A DNA stretch of 64,000 bases from Candidatus Bathyarchaeota archaeon (GTDB lineage: Archaea; Thermoproteota; Bathyarchaeia; 40CM-2-53-6; RBG-13-38-9), in the NCBI GenBank assembly GCA_963807605.1, contig CAWECG010000003.1, positions 64,001-128,000 on the forward strand. The letters are read 5' to 3'. The position numbers were made by a program, and so were the translations under genes. Position 1 is the stretch's first letter. Each line of letters starts with the position of its first letter. The notes below the pieces were generated by a model. It saw only the letters and a list, made by a program, of their open reading frames with translations. It made no database searches and was not told where the DNA came from. This document shows positions 48,281 to 64,000 of this stretch, piece by piece.

Positions 48281-49975
48281 TTGTCTCGACTTCCTGCTTT
48301 GACAATTATCATATTAATAGCGATATCCTCACTACTCAGTTCTACTAGCTGTTCAACAGAAGTTTATATCTCAAAGGCCAGCAGGCTGATGAATATAAAC
48401 AACTTCGGAATCACCACAATTACAGATGCCTTGACGGTGGCAAATAACGGAACAAGCCAGATAGAAACGCTATATTTCGGCTTTCCAAAGACCTATGCCA
48501 GCGGTCTTGAATCACTTGAAGCTCAGGGGCCCTCAGGCGAAGCCTTGAAGACAGAGAGGATAGTTAACGAATCCTCGACCAACTACATGGTTAGCTGCAG
48601 TCTAGCCAAATCCCTTGCCCCAGGAAGCACATACGAGATCAGATTAAGATCAGTCTTTTCCAACTTGGTATCATATAGTGGCAATGAGTTTGTCTTCTCT
48701 TACGTAGCTTACCCAACCCTTCCGGTGAGGGCACAAGTCTACAACTCGACCATAATCTTTCCAAAGGGCTCAACCCCCACGCAATGGCCCAACAAGACTT
48801 ACACGGCGACCAACGTCGGAGGTCAGCCCGCGCTGAATGGCACTCAGAGGCCGCTAGAACCCTTTTCAACAGTAGATATCTCAATCAGATACTCGAATGA
48901 TGCTCAACAACTGATCTCTTTCAAATCTGTCAAGAGAGAGATTACGATTTCCCCCAGCGGCGAAGTGACTTCAAAAGATACGTACTCGGTATTCAATTTC
49001 GGGTCGGAACTGAATGCCTTAACACTCCCACGCCCCCAGAACATAAGCCAAATAATGCTCTATGACTCAGCCGGGGCCATTGAGGATAGACTTCAAGCCC
49101 AGAATGACACTATAAGCGTCGCGCCGCGATTCGGAAAGTTGCCAGGAGAAACCTCATTCACCTTCAGACTCGAATACAATTTAGCCCAGCAAGACGACTT
49201 AAAGAGGTTGGAATGGCCTGGAAGATACCGATTCTCAGTTGAGACAGTCCCCCCCCGCGAATATCTAACCGAGGAGTACCTCGTCAACGTATCTCTGCCA
49301 AGAGGATCTAAGTCCGAAGTAGCATCACCACCACCGAATGCAACAACTCTCCTTCCAGACGGCGTTGAGGTCCTGACCTATAACCTCGATCGGCTCCTGC
49401 CGGGCCAAGCTAGTGCGACAGCTGTTGAATATAGTTATCCGATCTTCACACCTTCGATATACCCGCTCCAGTGGGTCTTTTCTCTAGAAGTAATCGTCGG
49501 AGCCTTTGCTGCTGCTGTTCTCCTCAAGAGGCCGACGAAAGCCGCTCCATCGGCTCCACTTGAGAAGATCAGAAGATTCATAGAACTTCAGGACGAGAAG
49601 AGGGCTTTGAGGCTCGAATTGGAAAAGAGAAGTGAAGAACTTGGAAGAGGAGCAGTTACAAAGCAAGATTACCGCAGACGAAGAAGATTGATTGAGACCC
49701 GGCTCAGCGAGATCAACAGATCCTTGGCGACATTGAAGACTGAGATCAAGGCCGTCGACCCAAGATATGACCAGATGACAAGGAGACTTGAGAAGGCTGA
49801 AGGAGAAGTAGATGCGCTACGTGCAAGCGAGAGTCAGATCACAAGTCAATACAGGTCAGGCCGGATAAGCAAGGAGGTTTATGAATCACTGGTGAGCGAC
49901 TTGAGGAAACGGATCGAGAAGGCCAAGGACACGGTCGACAGGACAATCATAACTCTCAGAGAAGAAGTAAGGTAA
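48281..49975 (+). CDS. Ribophorin I-like (oligosaccharyltransferase alpha subunit-like) membrane protein
   Basis: Signal peptide, two beta domains with EPFSTVDISIRYSN...FKSVKREITISPSG and ISVAPRF...FTFRLEYNL, single TM, C-terminal coiled coil. Confidence 0.7.
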   Translation: MSRLPALTIIILIAISSLLSSTSCSTEVYISKASRLMNINNFGITTITDALTVANNGTSQIETLYFGFPKTYASGLESLEAQGPSGEALKTERIVNESSTNYMVSCSLAKSLAPGSTYEIRLRSVFSNLVSYSGNEFVFSYVAYPTLPVRAQVYNSTIIFPKGSTPTQWPNKTYTATNVGGQPALNGTQRPLEPFSTVDISIRYSNDAQQLISFKSVKREITISPSGEVTSKDTYSVFNFGSELNALTLPRPQNISQIMLYDSAGAIEDRLQAQNDTISVAPRFGKLPGETSFTFRLEYNLAQQDDLKRLEWPGRYRFSVETVPPREYLTEEYLVNVSLPRGSKSEVASPPPNATTLLPDGVEVLTYNLDRLLPGQASATAVEYSYPIFTPSIYPLQWVFSLEVIVGAFAAAVLLKRPTKAAPSAPLEKIRRFIELQDEKRALRLELEKRSEELGRGAVTKQDYRRRRRLIETRLSEINRSLATLKTEIKAVDPRYDQMTRRLEKAEGEVDALRASESQITSQYRSGRISKEVYESLVSDLRKRIEKAKDTVDRTIITLREEVR

Positions 49976-50109: not shown

Positions 50110-51594
50110 TCAAGGTGAATATCTGAAGGGATGCTTCGCCATCTCACTATCCCTAAGAAGTTCCTCTACTGTTGGTCTACCTTCGACGGCCTTTCTAGTC
50201 GCGTGTCTCATAGCTTTGTAGTTGTTTATGTAGACCCGTTTTCTATCCACTGCAGAGGGATGAACAAAAACATTCGTTATTACGATCAGTTCGTCGACGA
50301 CAGCCTCAGGTAGCGTGCCGTCGCCCACACAGTCCATAACTGCCTTTGCAACAGCTGCTTGAGCAGGACCGTAGACCATGCTCGCCTGCCGCATATTCTT
50401 AATTGTCACTGTCGGAATGATCAGGGTTGTCGGCTTGACAGCGAGATTTGGTTCAAGGATGGCGATCAGTGGTTCGTGACCTGCAGAGGGCGTTGCCCTA
50501 GCCTTTGCGAAGGCTTCCGCCAAGGGACCGTCCCTACTTCCCAACATCACTTCTATGTGAGCAACCTCGGGGCCCGACCCCGCAAGTGACTCTCCGGTCT
50601 TGAGTCTAAAGTTCTTGACGAATTCATCTGTGACACCTATTTTGGCAAATCCCTCAGCTACAAGTTTGGGAGACTCAACTTCTGCTGCGGTAGATTTCAC
50701 TTTTAGTTTCCCAATCTTCTCCAAGTCGATCCTCAACTCTTCCATATCCTCGTAAGTCAACTCTCCTCCAACAGATAGCGGCAGCCTAACGGGCCCCACT
50801 TTGACTCCTAACATGTTGAGCGCAGCCTTAGACCCAACTGGACCGCTTCGAGCTGTGATTCTGGCAATCTTCTGGATCCCCAGTTGAGTCACCCGTCCTG
50901 AATTGAGGTCTCCCTTCTTCACTGCATCATAGACTTTGACCCAGACATCAGGTATGAAATTCGCACTCGCAAGGATCATACCTGATGCTCCGACTGCAAG
51001 TGCTGGAAGGACAACTTCGTCGTGCCCGCATAGCACCGAGAGCCTAGAGCCTGTCTTCTCGAAGACAGAGAGCATGTATCTTAGTTCTCCACTGCTATCC
51101 TTGAGTCCAATTATGTTAGGAATCTCAACAAGGTCTTCCACCATCTGCCAGCTTAGGTTCACACCAGTGGCTTGGGGGATATTGTATAAGATAATTGGAA
51201 GATCAACTGCCTCAGTCAGTGTTCTGTAATGTTCGTAGATCCCCCTATCCATGGGCTTGTGATAGTATGGCGTAACCACAAGGGCAGCATCAGCACCAAC
51301 ATCTTTAGCGTGTCGTGTCAACTCTATGGTTAGTTTGGTGCTGCTGTGTCCAGTCCCGGCTATGACAGGGATCCTCCCTTTAGCCTGGTCCACCACGATC
51401 TCAATGACCTTCTTTCTCTCATCCAATGAGAGGTTCTGAAATTCACCCGTTGTACCGCATGGTACCAAGGCTGAGACGCCCCGCTCAATAACGTAGTCGA
51501 CTAACCCTCTAAGCCGTCTTTCGTCTACCTGGTTTCCATCATCAGTAAAGGGGGTTACAAGAGCCGGCATTACACCCTGAGGTCTGAACACCAT
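50110..51594 (-). CDS. DapA/NAL-family class I aldolase fused to a formaldehyde-activating enzyme (Fae) domain
   Basis: N-term PALVTPF, CGTTGE, VTPYY, LYNIP, GLKDSSG; C-term GESLAGSGPEVAHI, LEPNLAVKP, YGPAQAAVAKAV, VFVHP, NNYKA, AKHPF. Confidence 0.92.
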   Translation of the reverse strand: MVFRPQGVMPALVTPFTDDGNQVDERRLRGLVDYVIERGVSALVPCGTTGEFQNLSLDERKKVIEIVVDQAKGRIPVIAGTGHSSTKLTIELTRHAKDVGADAALVVTPYYHKPMDRGIYEHYRTLTEAVDLPIILYNIPQATGVNLSWQMVEDLVEIPNIIGLKDSSGELRYMLSVFEKTGSRLSVLCGHDEVVLPALAVGASGMILASANFIPDVWVKVYDAVKKGDLNSGRVTQLGIQKIARITARSGPVGSKAALNMLGVKVGPVRLPLSVGGELTYEDMEELRIDLEKIGKLKVKSTAAEVESPKLVAEGFAKIGVTDEFVKNFRLKTGESLAGSGPEVAHIEVMLGSRDGPLAEAFAKARATPSAGHEPLIAILEPNLAVKPTTLIIPTVTIKNMRQASMVYGPAQAAVAKAVMDCVGDGTLPEAVVDELIVITNVFVHPSAVDRKRVYINNYKAMRHATRKAVEGRPTVEELLRDSEMAKHPFRYSP

Positions 51595-51772: not shown

Positions 51773-52072
51773 CTACGCTTGCTTGGGTGCTGGTTGTCCT
51801 TCGCGCTTTAGAACGATCTCAATAGACGACACTGATCTGTTGCCACCTTCCTCCAACTTGACCTCCTCAGTGCTAATGGACACACCATCGATCTTCAAGT
51901 TGGTCAGAAACCTTCTCCTCGTAATCTCGGCGACGTCAACTGCTGTAGTGATGGCTCGACCTCTGGCTTTAAGGACAACTTCATTATTCCCGACGCTTAA
52001 ACGACTCACAACGGATAGGACGTAGGTCATTAAGGGTTTCCTCCCGATGTAGATAGTGTTTGAATCCAACAA
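51773..52072 (-). CDS. albA: DNA/RNA-binding protein Alba
   Basis: IYIGRKPLMTYV, KARGRAITTAVDVAE, VSSIEIVL. Confidence 0.97.
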   Translation of the reverse strand: MLDSNTIYIGRKPLMTYVLSVVSRLSVGNNEVVLKARGRAITTAVDVAEITRRRFLTNLKIDGVSISTEEVKLEEGGNRSVSSIEIVLKREGQPAPKQA

Positions 52073-53418: not shown

Positions 53419-54918
53419 TTGAAAATTCACCGAACGATAGAACAGATCAATGAGAAAATACGGAAAGGCGAGGCAACGGTCGTTACAGCGGAGGAAATGA
53501 CTGAAATTGTCAGAAGCCGAGGAGTTGAAGTTGCTGCTAGAGATGTCGACGTGGTCACGACTGGGACCTTTGGTGCAATGTGCGGTTCAGGCGTTTTCCT
53601 GAATTTCGGTCACTCCGACCCTCCAATCAAGATGGAGAGTGTTACACTAAATGGCGTCGAGGCCTATCACGGAAACGCAGCTGTGGATGCATATCTCGGC
53701 GCGACGAAGATGCACCCGGAAAAAAGGTTTGATTACGGTGGAGGCCACGTAATAGAGGATCTCGTCTCTGGTAAAGAAGTAGAGCTAGTCGCTACTGGGT
53801 ACGGCACAGACTGTTATCCAAGGAAGTCTATCAGAACATCGGTAACCATAGATGATCTAAACCAGGCAATCCTCTGCAATCCAAGAAATGCCTATCAGAA
53901 GTACAACGCTGCCACAAATGGAAGGGACGAGTTGATATACACTTACATGGGAAAGCTCCTCCCAAATTATGGGAACGCCACATACTCCGGCTCCGGTGAA
54001 CTGAACCCTCTTACAAACGATCCTGATTACGAGAGCATAGGTGTGGGCACACGGATCTTTCTCGGCGGCGGAATAGGATACGTAACCGGTCCCGGAACCC
54101 AACATGAACCAGCAAACGGATTAGGCACCCTGATGGTTCAGGGCGACCTCAAAAGGATGAACTCAAAATTCCTCAGAGGCGGCAGCTTCACGAACTATGG
54201 TGCAACACTCTACGTCGGGCTTGGCATACCGATACCAATACTCAACGAGGGACTGGCCATGAAGACTGGCGTAAGTGACGAAGAGGTCAAGACGAATCTC
54301 TTGGACTATGGGATCCCACGCAGGAGCAGACCGATCATTAAAGTGACGGACTATGCGGAACTCAAATCAGGAAAGATAAGGCTGAAAGATAGAACAATCC
54401 CCGTCACCGCCCTCTCAAGTCTCAGGCTTGCGAGAGAAGTTGCGTCAACATTGAAACGTTGGATCAACGAAGGAAAGTTTCTACTCACATCTCCACAGGA
54501 AAGGCTACCACATGTAGGAACACTGAAACCAATGAAGATAAGCAGAGAAACATTATTCGCTCAGAACATAATGGTTCCTGCTGTAACATGCAAACCTGAA
54601 GAAGATATCGATACAGTAGCCAGGCGAATAGTTGAAGAGAACGTCAATCATGTGGTTGCTGTAGAACCAGCAGGAGCGCTCAGCGGCATCGTCACCTCAT
54701 TCGACATTACTAGAGCCGTCGCTCTGAAAAAGCGCAAACTCTCTGACGTGATGACCAAGCAGGTCGTGACAGCCTCACCAGACGAGCCTATTGAGTCATG
54801 TGTGCGGAAGATGAAGAAACACGATATCTCAGCCCTACCAGTTATCGATGCGGAGAGGAATATTCTCGGCATCGTGACCAGTGAACGAATCAGCAGATTG
54901 TTTGGGGAGTACCAGTAG
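53419..54918 (+). CDS. L-aspartate semialdehyde sulfurtransferase (homocysteine biosynthesis; DUF39 + CBS pair)
   Basis: RTIEQINEKI, VDVVTTGTFGAMC, GGGHVIEDL, GTDCYP, NPRNAYQ, C-terminal CBS domains. Confidence 0.93.
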   Translation: MKIHRTIEQINEKIRKGEATVVTAEEMTEIVRSRGVEVAARDVDVVTTGTFGAMCGSGVFLNFGHSDPPIKMESVTLNGVEAYHGNAAVDAYLGATKMHPEKRFDYGGGHVIEDLVSGKEVELVATGYGTDCYPRKSIRTSVTIDDLNQAILCNPRNAYQKYNAATNGRDELIYTYMGKLLPNYGNATYSGSGELNPLTNDPDYESIGVGTRIFLGGGIGYVTGPGTQHEPANGLGTLMVQGDLKRMNSKFLRGGSFTNYGATLYVGLGIPIPILNEGLAMKTGVSDEEVKTNLLDYGIPRRSRPIIKVTDYAELKSGKIRLKDRTIPVTALSSLRLAREVASTLKRWINEGKFLLTSPQERLPHVGTLKPMKISRETLFAQNIMVPAVTCKPEEDIDTVARRIVEENVNHVVAVEPAGALSGIVTSFDITRAVALKKRKLSDVMTKQVVTASPDEPIESCVRKMKKHDISALPVIDAERNILGIVTSERISRLFGEYQ

Positions 54919-54919
54919 T

Positions 54920-55303
54920 ATGAAGGCACGTTTAAGATTCAACAAGGAAAGGACCGCAGAGCCGATCATATCCTCGGTAATACTGAAGACCAAGGCTCCA
55001 ATAAACATCCTTCGAGCCGAAGTGGACGAGAGCGAAGGAGAAGTTCTTGTTGAGGTTCCAGATGAGAAGGCAGAGGGGACTATCGCAGCCTTCAAACAGA
55101 TGGGCGTCGATGTTCAAGTCGGACGATTCATAGAGATTTCGCGTGAGAGATGCATTGACTGTGGACATTGCATAACGATATGCCCGGTTGCAGCCATAGC
55201 AGCAGGAGAGGACCTCTCGGTCAACATCGATCCTCAGAAGTGCATAAATTGTGGGGCATGCATCGACTCCTGCCCAACAAGAGCTATCAAGATGCTCCAG
55301 TAG
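54920..55303 (+). CDS. NIL-domain ferredoxin (iron-sulfur subunit of aspartate semialdehyde sulfurtransferase)
   Basis: INILRAEV; CIDCGHCITICP and CINCGACIDSCP. Confidence 0.92.
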   Translation: MKARLRFNKERTAEPIISSVILKTKAPINILRAEVDESEGEVLVEVPDEKAEGTIAAFKQMGVDVQVGRFIEISRERCIDCGHCITICPVAAIAAGEDLSVNIDPQKCINCGACIDSCPTRAIKMLQ

Positions 55304-55314
55304 GAGGGTGGGAC

Positions 55315-56046
55315 ATGGCAGAGGCACTTACATATCGAAGAGTAATCGGAGAGTCTTCAATACTAGTCAAGACGGACTTTCATGAGACTGCTGAAGCTGC
55401 CTTCCAAACGATCACCAGGAATAGAGTGGAACTTGAGAGGTACGTAAGAGCCTTCCCTGAATTTCTCCTCGCGCTAGATCCCCTGAGAGTAAGCCAAGAC
55501 GCTCCTGAGATCGTCGTGAGGATGTCTCAAGCCGCTGAAAAGGCAAATGTAGGCCCGATGGCTGCTGTTGCCGGAGCCTTGGCGGATCTCGCAACCGAGG
55601 AGATGACTAGACAGGGGGCAAAGATTGCAGTCGTCGAGAACGGTGGAGAGATCTCGATCCGAAGTGAAGTCAAGGTGGATGTGGCAATATATTCAGGGAA
55701 ATCTCCTATCTCCGGAAGACTTGGCTTCCGAATCCTTCCACATGAGATTCCTCTTGGCCTTGCCACAAGCTCCGGCACTGTAGGCCATGCTCTGAGCTTC
55801 GGTTTTGCCGATTCAGCCACAGTCATAGCTGATGATGCAGCTCTGGCGGATGCAGCGGCGACGGCGGTCTGTAATGCTGTTGAAGACGAAGATTTGGAGA
55901 TTTCGATCCAGAAGGGTTTGAAGGTTGCCAGTACAATTCAAGGAGTTAGAGGAGCTCTAATAGTTAGAGACGACCATGTGGGCATGGTCGGGCGTCTTCC
56001 AGAACTAATCGGCATAGACCTTTGTTCTCAGTCTCAATCGCGTTAG
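55315..56046 (+). CDS. UPF0280 / ApbE-like protein
   Basis: VGPMAAVAGA, VENGGEI, TSSGTVGHALSFG, ADAAATAVCN. Confidence 0.92.
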   Translation: MAEALTYRRVIGESSILVKTDFHETAEAAFQTITRNRVELERYVRAFPEFLLALDPLRVSQDAPEIVVRMSQAAEKANVGPMAAVAGALADLATEEMTRQGAKIAVVENGGEISIRSEVKVDVAIYSGKSPISGRLGFRILPHEIPLGLATSSGTVGHALSFGFADSATVIADDAALADAAATAVCNAVEDEDLEISIQKGLKVASTIQGVRGALIVRDDHVGMVGRLPELIGIDLCSQSQSR

Positions 56047-57426: not shown

Positions 57427-58806
57427 GTGATACAAATGTCAAAAAAGACAGTCAAAGTCAACCTGACCACTGATGAGATGCCTAAGAGATGGTACAACAT
57501 ACTACCACACCTTCCTCCAGGCTACCCGCCCCCTCTGGACCCGAAGACTCTCAAGCCTCTATCGCCAGAACCGCTGTTGAGGCTTTTCGCTAAGGAATGC
57601 ATCATGCAGGCTGTCTCAACTCAGCCTGAGATAGACATTCCAGAAGAAGTCCTTGAGACATACATGACAATGGGGAGGCCAACCCCTCTGCAGCGTGCAG
57701 CAAGACTAGAGAAACACCTTGGAACACCTGCCAAGATCTATTTCAAGAGAGAAGACGTCAATCCTGTTGGAAGCCACAAACCGAATACTGCCATACCCCA
57801 GGCCTACTACAGCATGAAAGACGGCGCTGAAAGGCTCACAACTGAAACGGGAGCTGGACAGTGGGGTTCAGCACTCGCCTTAGCATGTGCTCTTTTCGAT
57901 TTGGACTTAACTGTGTATATGACAAGGAGCAGCTATCTGAGCAAGCCGGGCCGAAAAACAATGATAGAGGCCTACGGAGCAAATGTGTTCCCTTCTCCGA
58001 GTGACAACACTGAAGTGGGGAGGGAAATGCTCAAGCAGGATCCAAATCATCCTGGAAGCCTCGGGATAGCTATCAGCGAAGCGGTTGAAGACTGCTTAAA
58101 AGATGACAAGACAAAATACTCTCTCGGAAGCGTTCTGGACTTTGTCTTATTACACCAAAGCATAATCGGACTTGAAGCCAAGAAGCAGATGGAACTTTTT
58201 GACGCCTACCCGGATATCGTGATTGGCTGCATCGGCGGCGGAAGCAACTTTGGAGGCATCAGCTACCCGTTCCTTCATGACAAACTAAAGGGCAAAAGAG
58301 ACACGAGATTCATCGGAGTCGAACCTTCAGCAGTACCCTCCACAACCAAAGGCGTCTATCAATACGACTATGGCGACACATCAGAGCTTACATTTCTGGC
58401 CAAGATGTATACTGTAGGACACACTTTCCAATGTCCACCCATCCATGCCGGAGGCCTAAGATACCACGGAAAAGCACCAAGCCTGTCCTTCCTGATAAAC
58501 AAGGGTTTGATTGAGAGCCGCGCTTACGGTCAAAGACAAGCAATGGAGGCAGCAGACCTATTCGCCAACACTGAAGGCTTCATAGCTGCACCAGAGACTG
58601 CACATGCAATCAAAGCGACCATAGACCTTGCTCTTGAGTGCAAGAAGACAGGCGAAGAGAAGGCGATACTCTTCAACTATAGCGGCCACGGACTTCTCGA
58701 CCTCAGTGTCTACGACGAATACCATGCGAGCACCCTGAAAGATTTTGCGGCCACCAAGGAGATGTTGGAGGCTGGGCTTAGGTCACTACCTAAGATCCCT
58801 GCCTGA
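57427..58806 (+). CDS. trpB2: TrpB-like pyridoxal phosphate enzyme (TrpB2)
   Basis: PKRWYNI, RPTPLQRA, GSHKPNTA, TETGAGQWG, GCIGGGSN, IHAGGLRYHG, SGHGLLDL. Confidence 0.95.
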   Translation: MIQMSKKTVKVNLTTDEMPKRWYNILPHLPPGYPPPLDPKTLKPLSPEPLLRLFAKECIMQAVSTQPEIDIPEEVLETYMTMGRPTPLQRAARLEKHLGTPAKIYFKREDVNPVGSHKPNTAIPQAYYSMKDGAERLTTETGAGQWGSALALACALFDLDLTVYMTRSSYLSKPGRKTMIEAYGANVFPSPSDNTEVGREMLKQDPNHPGSLGIAISEAVEDCLKDDKTKYSLGSVLDFVLLHQSIIGLEAKKQMELFDAYPDIVIGCIGGGSNFGGISYPFLHDKLKGKRDTRFIGVEPSAVPSTTKGVYQYDYGDTSELTFLAKMYTVGHTFQCPPIHAGGLRYHGKAPSLSFLINKGLIESRAYGQRQAMEAADLFANTEGFIAAPETAHAIKATIDLALECKKTGEEKAILFNYSGHGLLDLSVYDEYHASTLKDFAATKEMLEAGLRSLPKIPA

Positions 58807-60940: not shown

Positions 60941-61978
60941 TAGTAGCTAACTTAAGTATTTGACTATATTTAATCTGAATCTCTTTGTTCTCAGCGTCTT
61001 TGAGATCTCTTTCTTCATGGCTTCGAATGTCGGATGGATGTGGTTGGCTTGTATGATGTCCTTGCTCTGTCTCCAGCATTCCTCGATGGGGTTGAGTTCC
61101 GGCCTGGCTGAGGGGAACCACTTGACATTTATGCAGCTGCGATTTTTGCGCAGCCACCGTTGGACACGTCGGTTGCGGTGATGGGGTACAGACTTATCTA
61201 GAAAGATAAGGAATACGCCGAACTTTCGTTTAAGCACCCTCATGTAGGCGAGGAAGCTTTCACCGTTTATCGCATCGTACTGCCGGAAGAGCTGCCTACT
61301 GTCGAGGGAGACGGCGCCGAAGAGGCAGGTGCGACGGTGGGAACCCGTTGTCAATACCATGGGCGTGCGTCCCCTCTTGGCCCACACGTAGCGGGAGACA
61401 GAGTCGTAGAGGAAGATGGACTCGTCCTCGCATAATACCGTCCAACCGTTCCTTTCCGCCTCTTTTACCGCTTTTTTCGCCCTTTTTTAAAACGGTTGAC
61501 CTCTTCGTCTGAGGCAGCGTTGACGTGCCTTCTGTCTGGTCGCTTTCTTGAAAGCCCCCACGAGTGGAGGAGACGGGTGATGTGCATGAGCGAGTACCGG
61601 ACGCCGGTCTGCTCATGAACAAGCTTCAGGACCTCCGTGGCGGTGGTGTACTCCTTCCCCTTCACGATTCTCTTTATGCACTCCATCTCCATGCTGGAGA
61701 TTTTCTGAGGTCTTCCAGACTTGGGCTTATTACGTAGACCGGGAAGCCCTTCCTTCTGGAAGCGGTACTTCCAGTAGAGGACCTTGGAGTGGGGACAATT
61801 ATGCTCCCTACCCACATCGTAGGAGGAGAGGCCGTCCAAAAGCTTCAGCACCATCAGAATCCTCTCTTTGACCTTCAGGTTCTTTTCGGCTCTCCACGCC
61901 TCTTCCAGAACTGACCTATCCATGCAATCCTGAATGCCTGATGTTACATAAATAGTCAACTACTTTAGTTAGTCACTA
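60941..61978 (-). mobile_element. IS630-family insertion sequence, apparently intact
   Basis: Imperfect terminal inverted repeats (60939-60967 vs 61952-61980, 25/29 identical including the flanking TA); TA duplicated in a C-TA-G target. Confidence 0.93.
60947..61959 (-). CDS. IS630 transposase, two ORFs joined by a -1 frameshift at TTT-AAA-AAA-G (about 61482-61492)
   Basis: HTH ORF (61465..61959) then -1 frame WTVLCEDES...FLDKSVPHH...RPELNPIEECW (DDE). Confidence 0.9.
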
Positions 61979-62757: not shown

Positions 62758-64000
62758 AAGAAAGCTCCCTGCTTCAGCAGGGAGATGAATTACGCTCCAG
62801 ACAGAATGTTTGAGGTTTAAACGTCTGGCACTCCAATATTAATATTGGTAGTTTCATGCGGAGAACTAACACCTTCATCCTTGCCCCAACAATGGAGCAA
62901 GAAAGAACACTGAGGGATAGAGCTACCAACTGTGCTAAACTTTGGAACGAGGTAACCTACCGCAGAAGAGAGGCATACATGAACTATCAACCAATAGATT
63001 GGAGATGCAAAGACCTCTACCAGAAATATGCATCACTGATTGATTCAGCGACAGCACAGCAAATCATCAGGAAGAGCAACGAGGCTTGGAGAAGCTTCTT
63101 CGCATTGAAGCAGTTGAAGCGAGAGGGTAAACTCCCACCAAATATTGAGAGGGTTTGCTTGCCCGGCTACTGGAAGCGAGATGGAAAATACAAGCTAATG
63201 ATGGTTCTAAGAAACAACATCTATAGTGTAAAGGATGGAGCGATGAAGCTACCAAAGAAGTTGAAGATACCCATCCGAGGCAAGCCGAGATGGAGTGGGA
63301 AGCAGGGAAAGGCCGAGGTCATCTATGATGAGGTTGATGGGAAGTGGCGTGTCTTTCAGGCTGTAAAGGTTAGGCCATTATTCAAGCCGAGAGGCTCCAA
63401 GACATGCTACATCGACCCCGGCATAATCAACCTGTTCACCATCTGGCTTGAAGGATGGAGGCAACCGATAGCATACAGTGGGAGAAATCTACTCTCTGAT
63501 TGGTGGTACTGGAATAGGAGAATAGCGGATTGTCAGAGCATACTTGAGACAATCAACGGCAAGAAAAGTTCGAAGAGACTAAGCATCCTCTACAGGATGA
63601 GACAACGGAGATTCAGGCAAGCAGTCAACACCATGATAAGAAGCATGGTAAGAGACCTCTATGATCTCGGTGTTTCAAAGATTATGATAGGAGATCTGAC
63701 AGGCATCAGAGAGAACAATGGAGAGAATAGTCACAAGACCAACTCAATGATTCATAACTTCTGGAGTTTCAACTACATTGTTCAAAGGCTAAGGTGTACG
63801 GCACAGGAATATGGCATCCGAGTCAAAGAGGTCAGCGAATACAAGACCTCAAGCAGATGCATAAGATGCAGATCAGAGAACATTGAGAGAAAAGGAAGGC
63901 TCTTCAAATGCTTGGAGTGTGGGATGGAAGCTCACAGGGATGCTATTGGAGTCTTGAACATGGCAAACCTCTACGGAGGAACAGCTATCAGGGTGATGAC
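62758..64000 (+). mobile_element. IS200/IS605-family (IS1341-type, tnpB-only) element; right end outside the window
   Basis: Left-end hairpin CTCCCTGCT-TC-AGCAGGGAG (62765-62784) followed by tnpB; no tnpA upstream. Confidence 0.8.
62856..64000 (+). CDS. tnpB: TnpB RNA-guided endonuclease, 3' partial (absent from the ORF track because no stop lies in the window)
   Basis: MRRTNTF...AKLWNE, SATAQQIIRK...AWRSFF, RuvC-I YIDPG, IMIGDL, VSEYKTSSRCIRC, FKCLECG, HRDAIGVLN. Confidence 0.93.
   Translation, partial: MRRTNTFILAPTMEQERTLRDRATNCAKLWNEVTYRRREAYMNYQPIDWRCKDLYQKYASLIDSATAQQIIRKSNEAWRSFFALKQLKREGKLPPNIERVCLPGYWKRDGKYKLMMVLRNNIYSVKDGAMKLPKKLKIPIRGKPRWSGKQGKAEVIYDEVDGKWRVFQAVKVRPLFKPRGSKTCYIDPGIINLFTIWLEGWRQPIAYSGRNLLSDWWYWNRRIADCQSILETINGKKSSKRLSILYRMRQRRFRQAVNTMIRSMVRDLYDLGVSKIMIGDLTGIRENNGENSHKTNSMIHNFWSFNYIVQRLRCTAQEYGIRVKEVSEYKTSSRCIRCRSENIERKGRLFKCLECGMEAHRDAIGVLNMANLYGGTAIRVM

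Follow-up and report, generated by a model that had tools for sequence, protein, structure and literature searches.

The locus described here raises the question of what reaction is served by a single gene in which an aldolase of the DapA/NAL family is joined to a formaldehyde-activating enzyme (Fae) domain. It lies in a 64,000-nucleotide stretch of a Candidatus Bathyarchaeota genome (positions 64,001 to 128,000 of contig CAWECG010000003.1), the whole of which we call the window. An earlier note, made from the letters of the window, had read the gene product as a pyruvate-dependent aldolase rather than a true DHDPS, one that might release formaldehyde from 4-hydroxy-2-oxobutanoate (HOB) directly into the tetrahydromethanopterin (H4MPT) pathway. 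HOB is the keto acid of homoserine.

The fusion gene and its distribution

The gene and its parts are as follows (window coordinates).

50110..51594, minus strand: class I aldolase of the DapA/NAL family with an attached Fae domain, one uninterrupted ORF of 494 aa
50704..51594, minus strand: aldolase barrel, residues 1-297, with Thr48/Thr49, Tyr111, Tyr137 and Lys165 intact
50605..50703, minus strand: variable linker, residues about 298-330, of low pLDDT and crossed by an independent contig
50125..50604, minus strand: Fae domain, residues 331-490, matching TIGR03126

Residues 7-277 match the dapA model TIGR00674 at 253.8 bits (cut-off 206.15), hence the DapA label in databases, and residues 332-490 match TIGR03126 at 201 bits (cut-off 118), covering model positions 2-160 of 160. 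Every motif on which the earlier note had built is in place: GTTGE (47-51), Tyr137 in LYNIP, Lys165 in GLKDSSG and His346 in EVAHI. In the AlphaFold model the barrel is of DHDPS type (target TM-score 0.94, rmsd 1.8 Å against solved DHDPS), the linker (301-329) is of low confidence and the C-terminal domain is folded. The fusion is real and no assembly artefact, because PF00701 and PF08714 occur together in all 120 full-length homologues among the matches listed (65-97% identity, their named organisms being Bathyarchaeia throughout) and because a contig from a separate soil metagenome covers the linker stretch 50593-50746. Among the indels listed in the comparison with metagenome contigs, none falls within the gene. 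RNA matches amounted to two 151-base contigs from a single metatranscriptome, too little to demonstrate expression.

The DHDPS-plus-Fae architecture, for which the earlier note had proposed a search, turned up in the Bathyarchaeia homologues and as tandem pairs elsewhere. Of 251 Bathyarchaeia genomes, 63 encode the full-length fusion and nine more a partial one, and these carriers come from many families. A divergent form, mostly in tandem pairs, was seen in Anaerolineae, Thermoplasmata, Asgard archaea, Thermodesulfobacteriota, Spirochaetota and Aerophobetes. We found no description of an aldolase-Fae fusion in the literature, and this appears to be a real, widespread and misannotated enzyme subfamily that has so far gone undescribed.

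The barrel is not a lysine-pathway DapA

With DapA (TIGR00674) the barrel shares its fold, the Thr-Thr/Tyr/Tyr/Lys machinery for binding pyruvate and about 40% identity; it differs in the appended Fae domain and in three positions that bind aspartate semialdehyde, where Arg138 is replaced by Ala142 (codon at 51169-51171), Asp187 by His191 and Asn248 by Gly251. The Arg138 position was the one flagged by the earlier note, and in E. coli DHDPS that residue binds aspartate semialdehyde (PMC3188589). We aligned the window protein with 236 homologues (237 sequences in all, with 120 single-gene homologues and 58 tandem pairs among them). Across the homologues the Tyr and the Schiff-base Lys (Lys165 here, codon at 51100-51102) are invariant, while none of the 237 sequences has Arg at position 138, the window protein having Ala and the homologues V, C, A, I, T or L; the Asp187 position is mostly His and the Asn248 position mostly Gly. 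The fused barrels carry the signature G-H-D-E and ILASAN and form one clade (29 of its 34 leaves fused, support 0.99), and so make up a subfamily whose active site is both conserved and distinctive. The protein falls below every curated cut-off of the NAL, KDG aldolase, KDGDH and HpaI-type models (NF003164, NF040954, TIGR03249, TIGR02313).

The database annotation would make this a genuine lysine-route DHDPS with an appended Fae domain, and besides the TIGR00674 score it can call on the best structural matches, which are DHDPS, and on the fact that the fusion is the sole DapA-like gene of the source genome, the earlier note's suggested check for a separate dapA having found no other. We nonetheless find this reading scarcely credible, since, apart from the missing Arg, neither dapB nor dapF is above cut-off in this 94% complete genome, which instead encodes the LysW pathway (a lysW-lysX-lysY-lysZ-lysJ-lysK cluster), and many carriers have no match to the asd gene that would supply the substrate. 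That the fusion enzyme is not a DHDPS, as the earlier note held, we take as nearly certain. Within the lysine region of the source genome (contig C1, 150942-159023) two divergent lysW-lysX pairs flank a transposase-like gene and an Lrp-type regulator, and are followed by genes of the lysY/Z/J/K type.

The Fae domain and its C1 carrier

The Fae domain matches PDB 1Y5Y/1Y60 with E = 6e-34. Its His22, Gln88, Phe119 and His121 are kept as His346 (50557-50559), Gln412, Phe443 and His445, and all four are kept in 120 of 120 single-gene homologues. We take His22 to be catalytic, and Asp24, Leu53, Lys71 and Gln88 to contact the pterin. Lys71 is changed to Thr395 and Thr50 to Glu374, again in 120 of 120; Leu53 has become Ile, and the Asp24 position holds Glu in the window protein and Asp in 95 of the 120. 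The earlier note's full Fae domain thus stands as to length and the EVAHI His, but it is not wholly canonical. A separate Fae-Hps in the source genome (contig C4, 392862-394043; 593 bits to NF009833) retains both Lys71 and Thr50. In the 58 tandem pairs the first copy always has Gln88 and has mostly lost His22, whereas the second always has His22, together with Phe119, and has mostly lost Gln88. The Fae active site is formed between subunits, and because these half-sites are complementary, they suggest selection on a single composite site. Overall this half of the protein appears to be a working but specialised Fae, and the exchanges at positions 71 and 50 may give the fusion a different mode of pterin binding.

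For the H4MPT pathway that the earlier note expected in the host, the genes are there: mch is above cut-off, and ORFs for fwd, ftr, mtd and CODH/ACS, identified by eye, lie in the same cluster. Among fusion-positive Bathyarchaeia genomes 39 of 40 have mch. The coupling to H4MPT is not general, however, as only seven of 36 family-carrying genomes outside Bathyarchaeia have mch, and most bacterial carriers lack it; such carriers probably use tetrahydrofolate, and a Fae-type site working on tetrahydrofolate would be new. The tandem fusions (loci L109-L189) reside mostly in genomes without mch, Methanomassiliicoccales included.

The invariance of the two exchanges, this scarcity of mch outside Bathyarchaeia and the presence of a separate Fae-Hps in the source genome would also fit a Fae domain that serves as a non-catalytic pterin sensor or scaffold, on a barrel acting as aldolase or dehydratase on some unrelated substrate. 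We consider that very improbable, given the invariant catalytic His of the single-gene members, the complementary half-sites of the tandem pairs, and the membership of the alternative gene partner described below in a pterin-dependent hydroxymethyltransferase family. Near the CODH/ACS and Fae-Hps genes of the source genome lie two adjacent, divergent paralogues of 324 aa (L086:11259-13552; contig C4, about 386260-388550), which to us resemble beta-keto acid cleavage enzymes.

An unnamed TIM barrel with interchangeable partners

Most fusion loci have only housekeeping neighbours, such as trmI. The commonest neighbour of another kind is an unnamed TIM-barrel gene with two distantly related forms, of about 310 and 430 aa, the shorter of which has more than 3000 homologues. 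Examples of the two forms are:

L096:10769-11716: unnamed TIM-barrel gene
L080:6489-7778: unnamed TIM-barrel gene

In counts that come from incomplete and mutually related MAGs, 40 fusion-positive against 40 fusion-negative, the TIM barrel was found in 32 of the former and two of the latter. Of the eight carriers that lack it, seven make up the family of the source genome; in the source genome itself (94% complete) no homologue was found by profile, tblastn or PF01136, and its six relatives likewise have none.

Among 159 loci anchored on the TIM barrel, a PanB-like gene adjoins it in 87 and the fusion in 30, and in no locus do both. PanB exchanges hydroxymethyl units between methylene-tetrahydrofolate and a 2-oxo acid, and an aldolase working with Fae would be expected to carry out the same net reaction. 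PanB models (PF02548 family) gave zero matches to the fusion protein itself. The barrel-linked PanB-like genes cluster apart from the PanB of pantothenate operons (at a modest support of 0.66), lie near fhs/folD in 13 loci, and share the exchanges V179L (85/85), I212L (84/85) and V214I (84/85), whereas the PanB of pantothenate operons has Val at each of positions 179, 212 and 214. Smaller residues in E. coli PanB (I202A/I212A) widen its pocket (PMC7611260); since the residues here are larger, the alignment suggests a pocket tighter than that for ketoisovalerate and a smaller substrate, such as pyruvate. PanB-like genes of this Leu179/Leu212/Ile214 type form a large subfamily in Anaerolineae, Bipolaricaulota and Thermotogae (L203-L267 and L323-L398, e.g. 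L397:6079-6948). Its members pass the panB cut-off and yet are probably not pantothenate enzymes.

Structure prediction returned a generic TIM barrel with no outstanding match (VIA Z 14.5-12.7) for the unnamed protein; its top Foldseek matches were class II aldolases at 10-17% identity, and the 430-aa form had no Atlas match at or above 0.9. The 'U32 peptidase' label that it bears in places is uninformative as to chemistry, and the protein has no conserved cysteine cluster. A Glu/Leu/Phe/Val-type dehydrogenase gene lies beside the TIM barrel in 18 loci, mostly together with the PanB-like gene. When it stands without either partner it can adjoin hom together with a gene for an aldehyde dehydrogenase or AOR (L204, L217, L243, L251, L264), and in L204 these genes occupy the slot that the fusion has in related genomes.

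The window also contains the following trio of genes for homocysteine synthesis.

53419..54918, plus strand: DUF39/HcyBio aspartate-semialdehyde sulfurtransferase with CBS domains
54881..55303, plus strand: NIL and ferredoxin partner of HcyBio
55315..56046, plus strand: UPF0280/COG2122 (ApbE-like) partner of HcyBio, with PRK04334 below cut-off and the start inferred (the listed ORF starts at 55168)

The trio (53419-56046) is complete, is oriented divergently to the fusion and is conserved within the family of the source genome; it lies 1.8 kb from the fusion here and about 2 kb in nine related loci, all of which represent a single shared synteny block. Proteins of these three types convert aspartate semialdehyde to homocysteine, bypassing homoserine (PMC5764234). 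In Bathyarchaeia the TIM barrel is anti-correlated with HcyBio (five of 34 barrel-positive genomes against 35 of 46 others) and with asd (seven of 34 against 40 of 46). As a control, ilvD was present in 19 of the 34 barrel-positive genomes, many of which are general auxotrophs, so that asd, hom and HcyBio seem to be lost more often than they would otherwise. We dropped the assignment of a function from these anti-correlations, which are partly due to general auxotrophy and shared ancestry; that with HcyBio hints at methionine or homocysteine for the TIM barrel, confounded as it is by auxotrophy and kinship.

Pantothenate is an unlikely purpose

A plain replacement of PanB in pantothenate synthesis, with the fusion making ketopantoate from ketoisovalerate and methylene-H4MPT, was our first idea. 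The swap with a PanB-family gene beside the TIM barrel speaks for it, as do the PoK-like and ketopantoate-reductase-like genes of the source genome and the character of that genome's lone PanB, an atypical paralogue outside any pantothenate operon:

Contig C4, 368838-369719 (L001:1438-2316), minus strand: sole PanB of the source genome, atypical, within the H4MPT gene cluster

We abandoned the idea, which now seems to us very unlikely, because canonical PanB freely co-occurs with the fusion: it is present in 22 of the 40 fusion-positive genomes against nine of the other 40, often within an intact pok/pps/panE/coaBC cluster, and pantothenate genes do not recur next to the fusion. In most family members a split transketolase precedes the paralogue of the source genome, which carries T23S, I202W, I212G and V214N in seven of seven; these exchanges suggest that PanB-family enzymes act on yet a third substrate.

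Neighbours and genome content point to the homoserine node

The recurrent metabolic neighbours are those of homoserine. In one genome (G031), which has no match to hom or to the archaeal asd (asd_EA), genes for homoserine kinase (thrB) and threonine synthase (thrC) come immediately after the fusion; in an Anaerolineales genome thrC follows the fusion, and a ThrC-like gene (match below cut-off) follows an unfused member of the fused-barrel clade. Adjacent hom genes occur in two Bathyarchaeia contexts (L071/L416 and L091/L100), and aminotransferase genes adjoin the fusion in L134 and L161. MttB-family methyltransferase genes adjoin tandem fusions in the bacterial loci L134, L140 and L152; demethylation of homoserine betaine would be a speculative link to them.

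Across genomes, hom was found in only 11 of 40 fusion-positive against 32 of 40 fusion-negative genomes. It is missing from five of the seven genomes in the source genome's family, and two of these five retain thrB-thrC. In four carriers (G012, G054, G096 and G129) thrB and a thrC-type gene are neighbours, and neither hom nor a match to PF02774 (semialdehyde dehydrogenase) is present; carriers with this gene content would need another source of homoserine. There are counter-examples: G024 and G075 have thrB without hom and without the fusion, and a third, G088, has a PanB paralogue of the barrel-linked type. In the source genome ask, asd, hom and thrC are all present, and thrB gave no match.

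Proposed reaction

An aldol transfer linked to formaldehyde and a pterin is very probably what the fusion enzyme performs. For the specific reaction our best reading, which we think has a good chance of being right, is the reversible conversion of pyruvate and methylene-H4MPT to HOB. The fusion would then be a two-domain, pterin-dependent pyruvate hydroxymethyltransferase, a functional analogue of PanB assembled from other parts. In the barrel, pyruvate would form a Schiff base and enamine on Lys165 and add to formaldehyde, or HOB would lose formaldehyde, while the tethered Fae domain would exchange that formaldehyde with H4MPT, so that overall pyruvate + methylene-H4MPT + H2O ↔ HOB + H4MPT. 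Transamination, or an amino-acid dehydrogenase, would interconvert HOB and homoserine. That formaldehyde is the aldehyde, that pyruvate and HOB are the pair, that the carrier here is H4MPT and that channelling takes place are our inferences, as is any direction.

The reaction should lie near equilibrium, by analogy with PanB and SHMT, so that either direction is possible. With all steps reversible, the pathway could supply homoserine for threonine and methionine without Ask, Asd and Hom, or could degrade homoserine-type C4 compounds to pyruvate and C1 units, and the direction probably differs between lineages. The links to thrB and thrC and the loss of hom point to synthesis. In genomes that often lack ilvD, links to fhs, tyrosine phenol-lyase, an amino-acid dehydrogenase, an Lrp-type regulator and hom with ALDH/AOR point to breakdown of a C4 compound generated by the TIM barrel. 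The need for the enzyme in the source genome is not obvious, because ask, asd and hom are kept there and the TIM-barrel partner is absent. For the earlier note's proposal of HOB as substrate and of a link between homoserine and C1 metabolism, comparative genomics thus brings support, from the PanB-like swap and from the adjacency of thrB, thrC, hom and aminotransferases; its framing in terms of formaldehyde release needs widening, as the synthetic direction fits at least equally well in some lineages.

The same logic could apply to a different 4-hydroxy-2-oxo acid, cleaved by the aldolase barrel or made by it from formaldehyde and, for instance, 2-oxobutanoate or hydroxypyruvate. Alternatively, HOB could arise from a sugar acid by tetronate dehydration and have nothing to do with homoserine. 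The G-x-D-E motif and the Ala at the Arg138 position, which resemble NAL/KDG aldolases, would fit such a substrate, as would a barrel homologue in a Thermomicrobium cluster of sugar ABC and mandelate-racemase-family genes and an enolase-family gene after the fusion in L140 and L152. PanB, moreover, takes many 2-oxo acids (PMC7611260). We judge this unlikely all the same, since the recurrent neighbours are thrB, thrC, hom, aminotransferases and amino-acid dehydrogenase, with no sugar genes among them, and since the pocket of the alternative PanB-like enzyme appears smaller rather than larger.

Returning to the pyruvate/HOB reading, its wider form is a natural and widespread route in anaerobic archaea and bacteria, in which pyruvate and methylene-H4MPT or methylene-H4F yield HOB and then homoserine through either the fusion or the PanB-like subfamily, bypassing Ask, Asd and Hom and bringing C1 units into threonine and methionine. 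We put this forward tentatively, at somewhat short of an even chance. Together with the unnamed TIM-barrel enzyme, the route may also be tied to methionine or homocysteine turnover.

Comparison with known systems

In design the fusion is like Fae-Hps and in net chemistry like PanB, and it belongs to neither. Fae-Hps of methanogens (NF009833) likewise joins Fae to an aldolase involving formaldehyde, which passes in free form to H4MPT; in the fusion the partner is a DapA/NAL Schiff-base barrel instead of Hps, the domain order is reversed, Lys71 and Thr50 of Fae are changed, and the match to NF009833 reaches 165 bits (cut-off 274), with the Fae part alone matching. With PanB (EC 2.1.2.11) it would share the net conversion of a 2-oxo acid and a methylene-pterin to a 4-hydroxy-2-oxo acid and back, and a PanB-like subfamily fills its gene slot beside the TIM barrel, but its carrier is probably H4MPT, its substrate probably pyruvate, and it has no tie to pantothenate genes. 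PanB is a metal-enolate enzyme, to which a Schiff base with a separate Fae domain is an unrelated strategy.

The HOB aldolase step of the synthetic homoserine cycle (RhmA/YfaU, GarL; He et al., reviewed in PMC8879981) takes pyruvate and formaldehyde to HOB and on to homoserine, as proposed here; there, promiscuous aldolases yield HOB in vivo, endogenous transaminases make homoserine from it, and HOB is termed non-native (PMC8879981). That cycle is engineered and uses promiscuous enzymes and free formaldehyde, whereas the fusion would be a dedicated natural family drawing its C1 unit from a pterin. Hitherto, a route from pyruvate and a C1 unit to homoserine is known only as an engineered pathway; if our reading is true, the fusion provides a natural counterpart, and a dedicated HOB-forming enzyme for synthetic methylotrophy, which now relies on promiscuous aldolases alone. 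YjhH and E. coli DapA are presumably the DapA-family enzymes in a published screen for HOB aldolases. Neither gave rescue as a HOB aldolase in P. putida, which speaks against our reading; in its favour, P. putida PanB gave partial rescue of a homoserine auxotroph (bioRxiv 10.1101/2025.02.17.638773).

Published reconstructions assign the fae genes of Bathyarchaeia to formaldehyde detoxification or use (PMC10321748, PMC11631310); if the proposed reaction is correct, this label and that of lysine synthesis would both be misleading for the fusion, and a large set of 'panB' genes would not be for pantothenate. At this enzyme the aspartate-family amino acids would then meet the C1 branch (the methyl branch of the Wood-Ljungdahl pathway), a natural junction not described before. 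Anoxic sediments are rich in both Bathyarchaeia and Anaerolineae.

Other genes of the window

Convergent with the fusion lies a gene for a membrane-anchored protein of 564 aa (48281-49975), above no NCBIfam cut-off. Directly upstream of the fusion is what we take to be an Alba-like chromatin protein gene (51773-52072), and 57427-58806 is presumably a TrpB2-like gene. Toward the end of the window we recognised, by eye, a split IS630-like transposase (60947-61959) and a TnpB-like ORF (62856-63998) that runs past the window end and has a similar copy on contig C4 of the source genome (G000) at 576965-578260.
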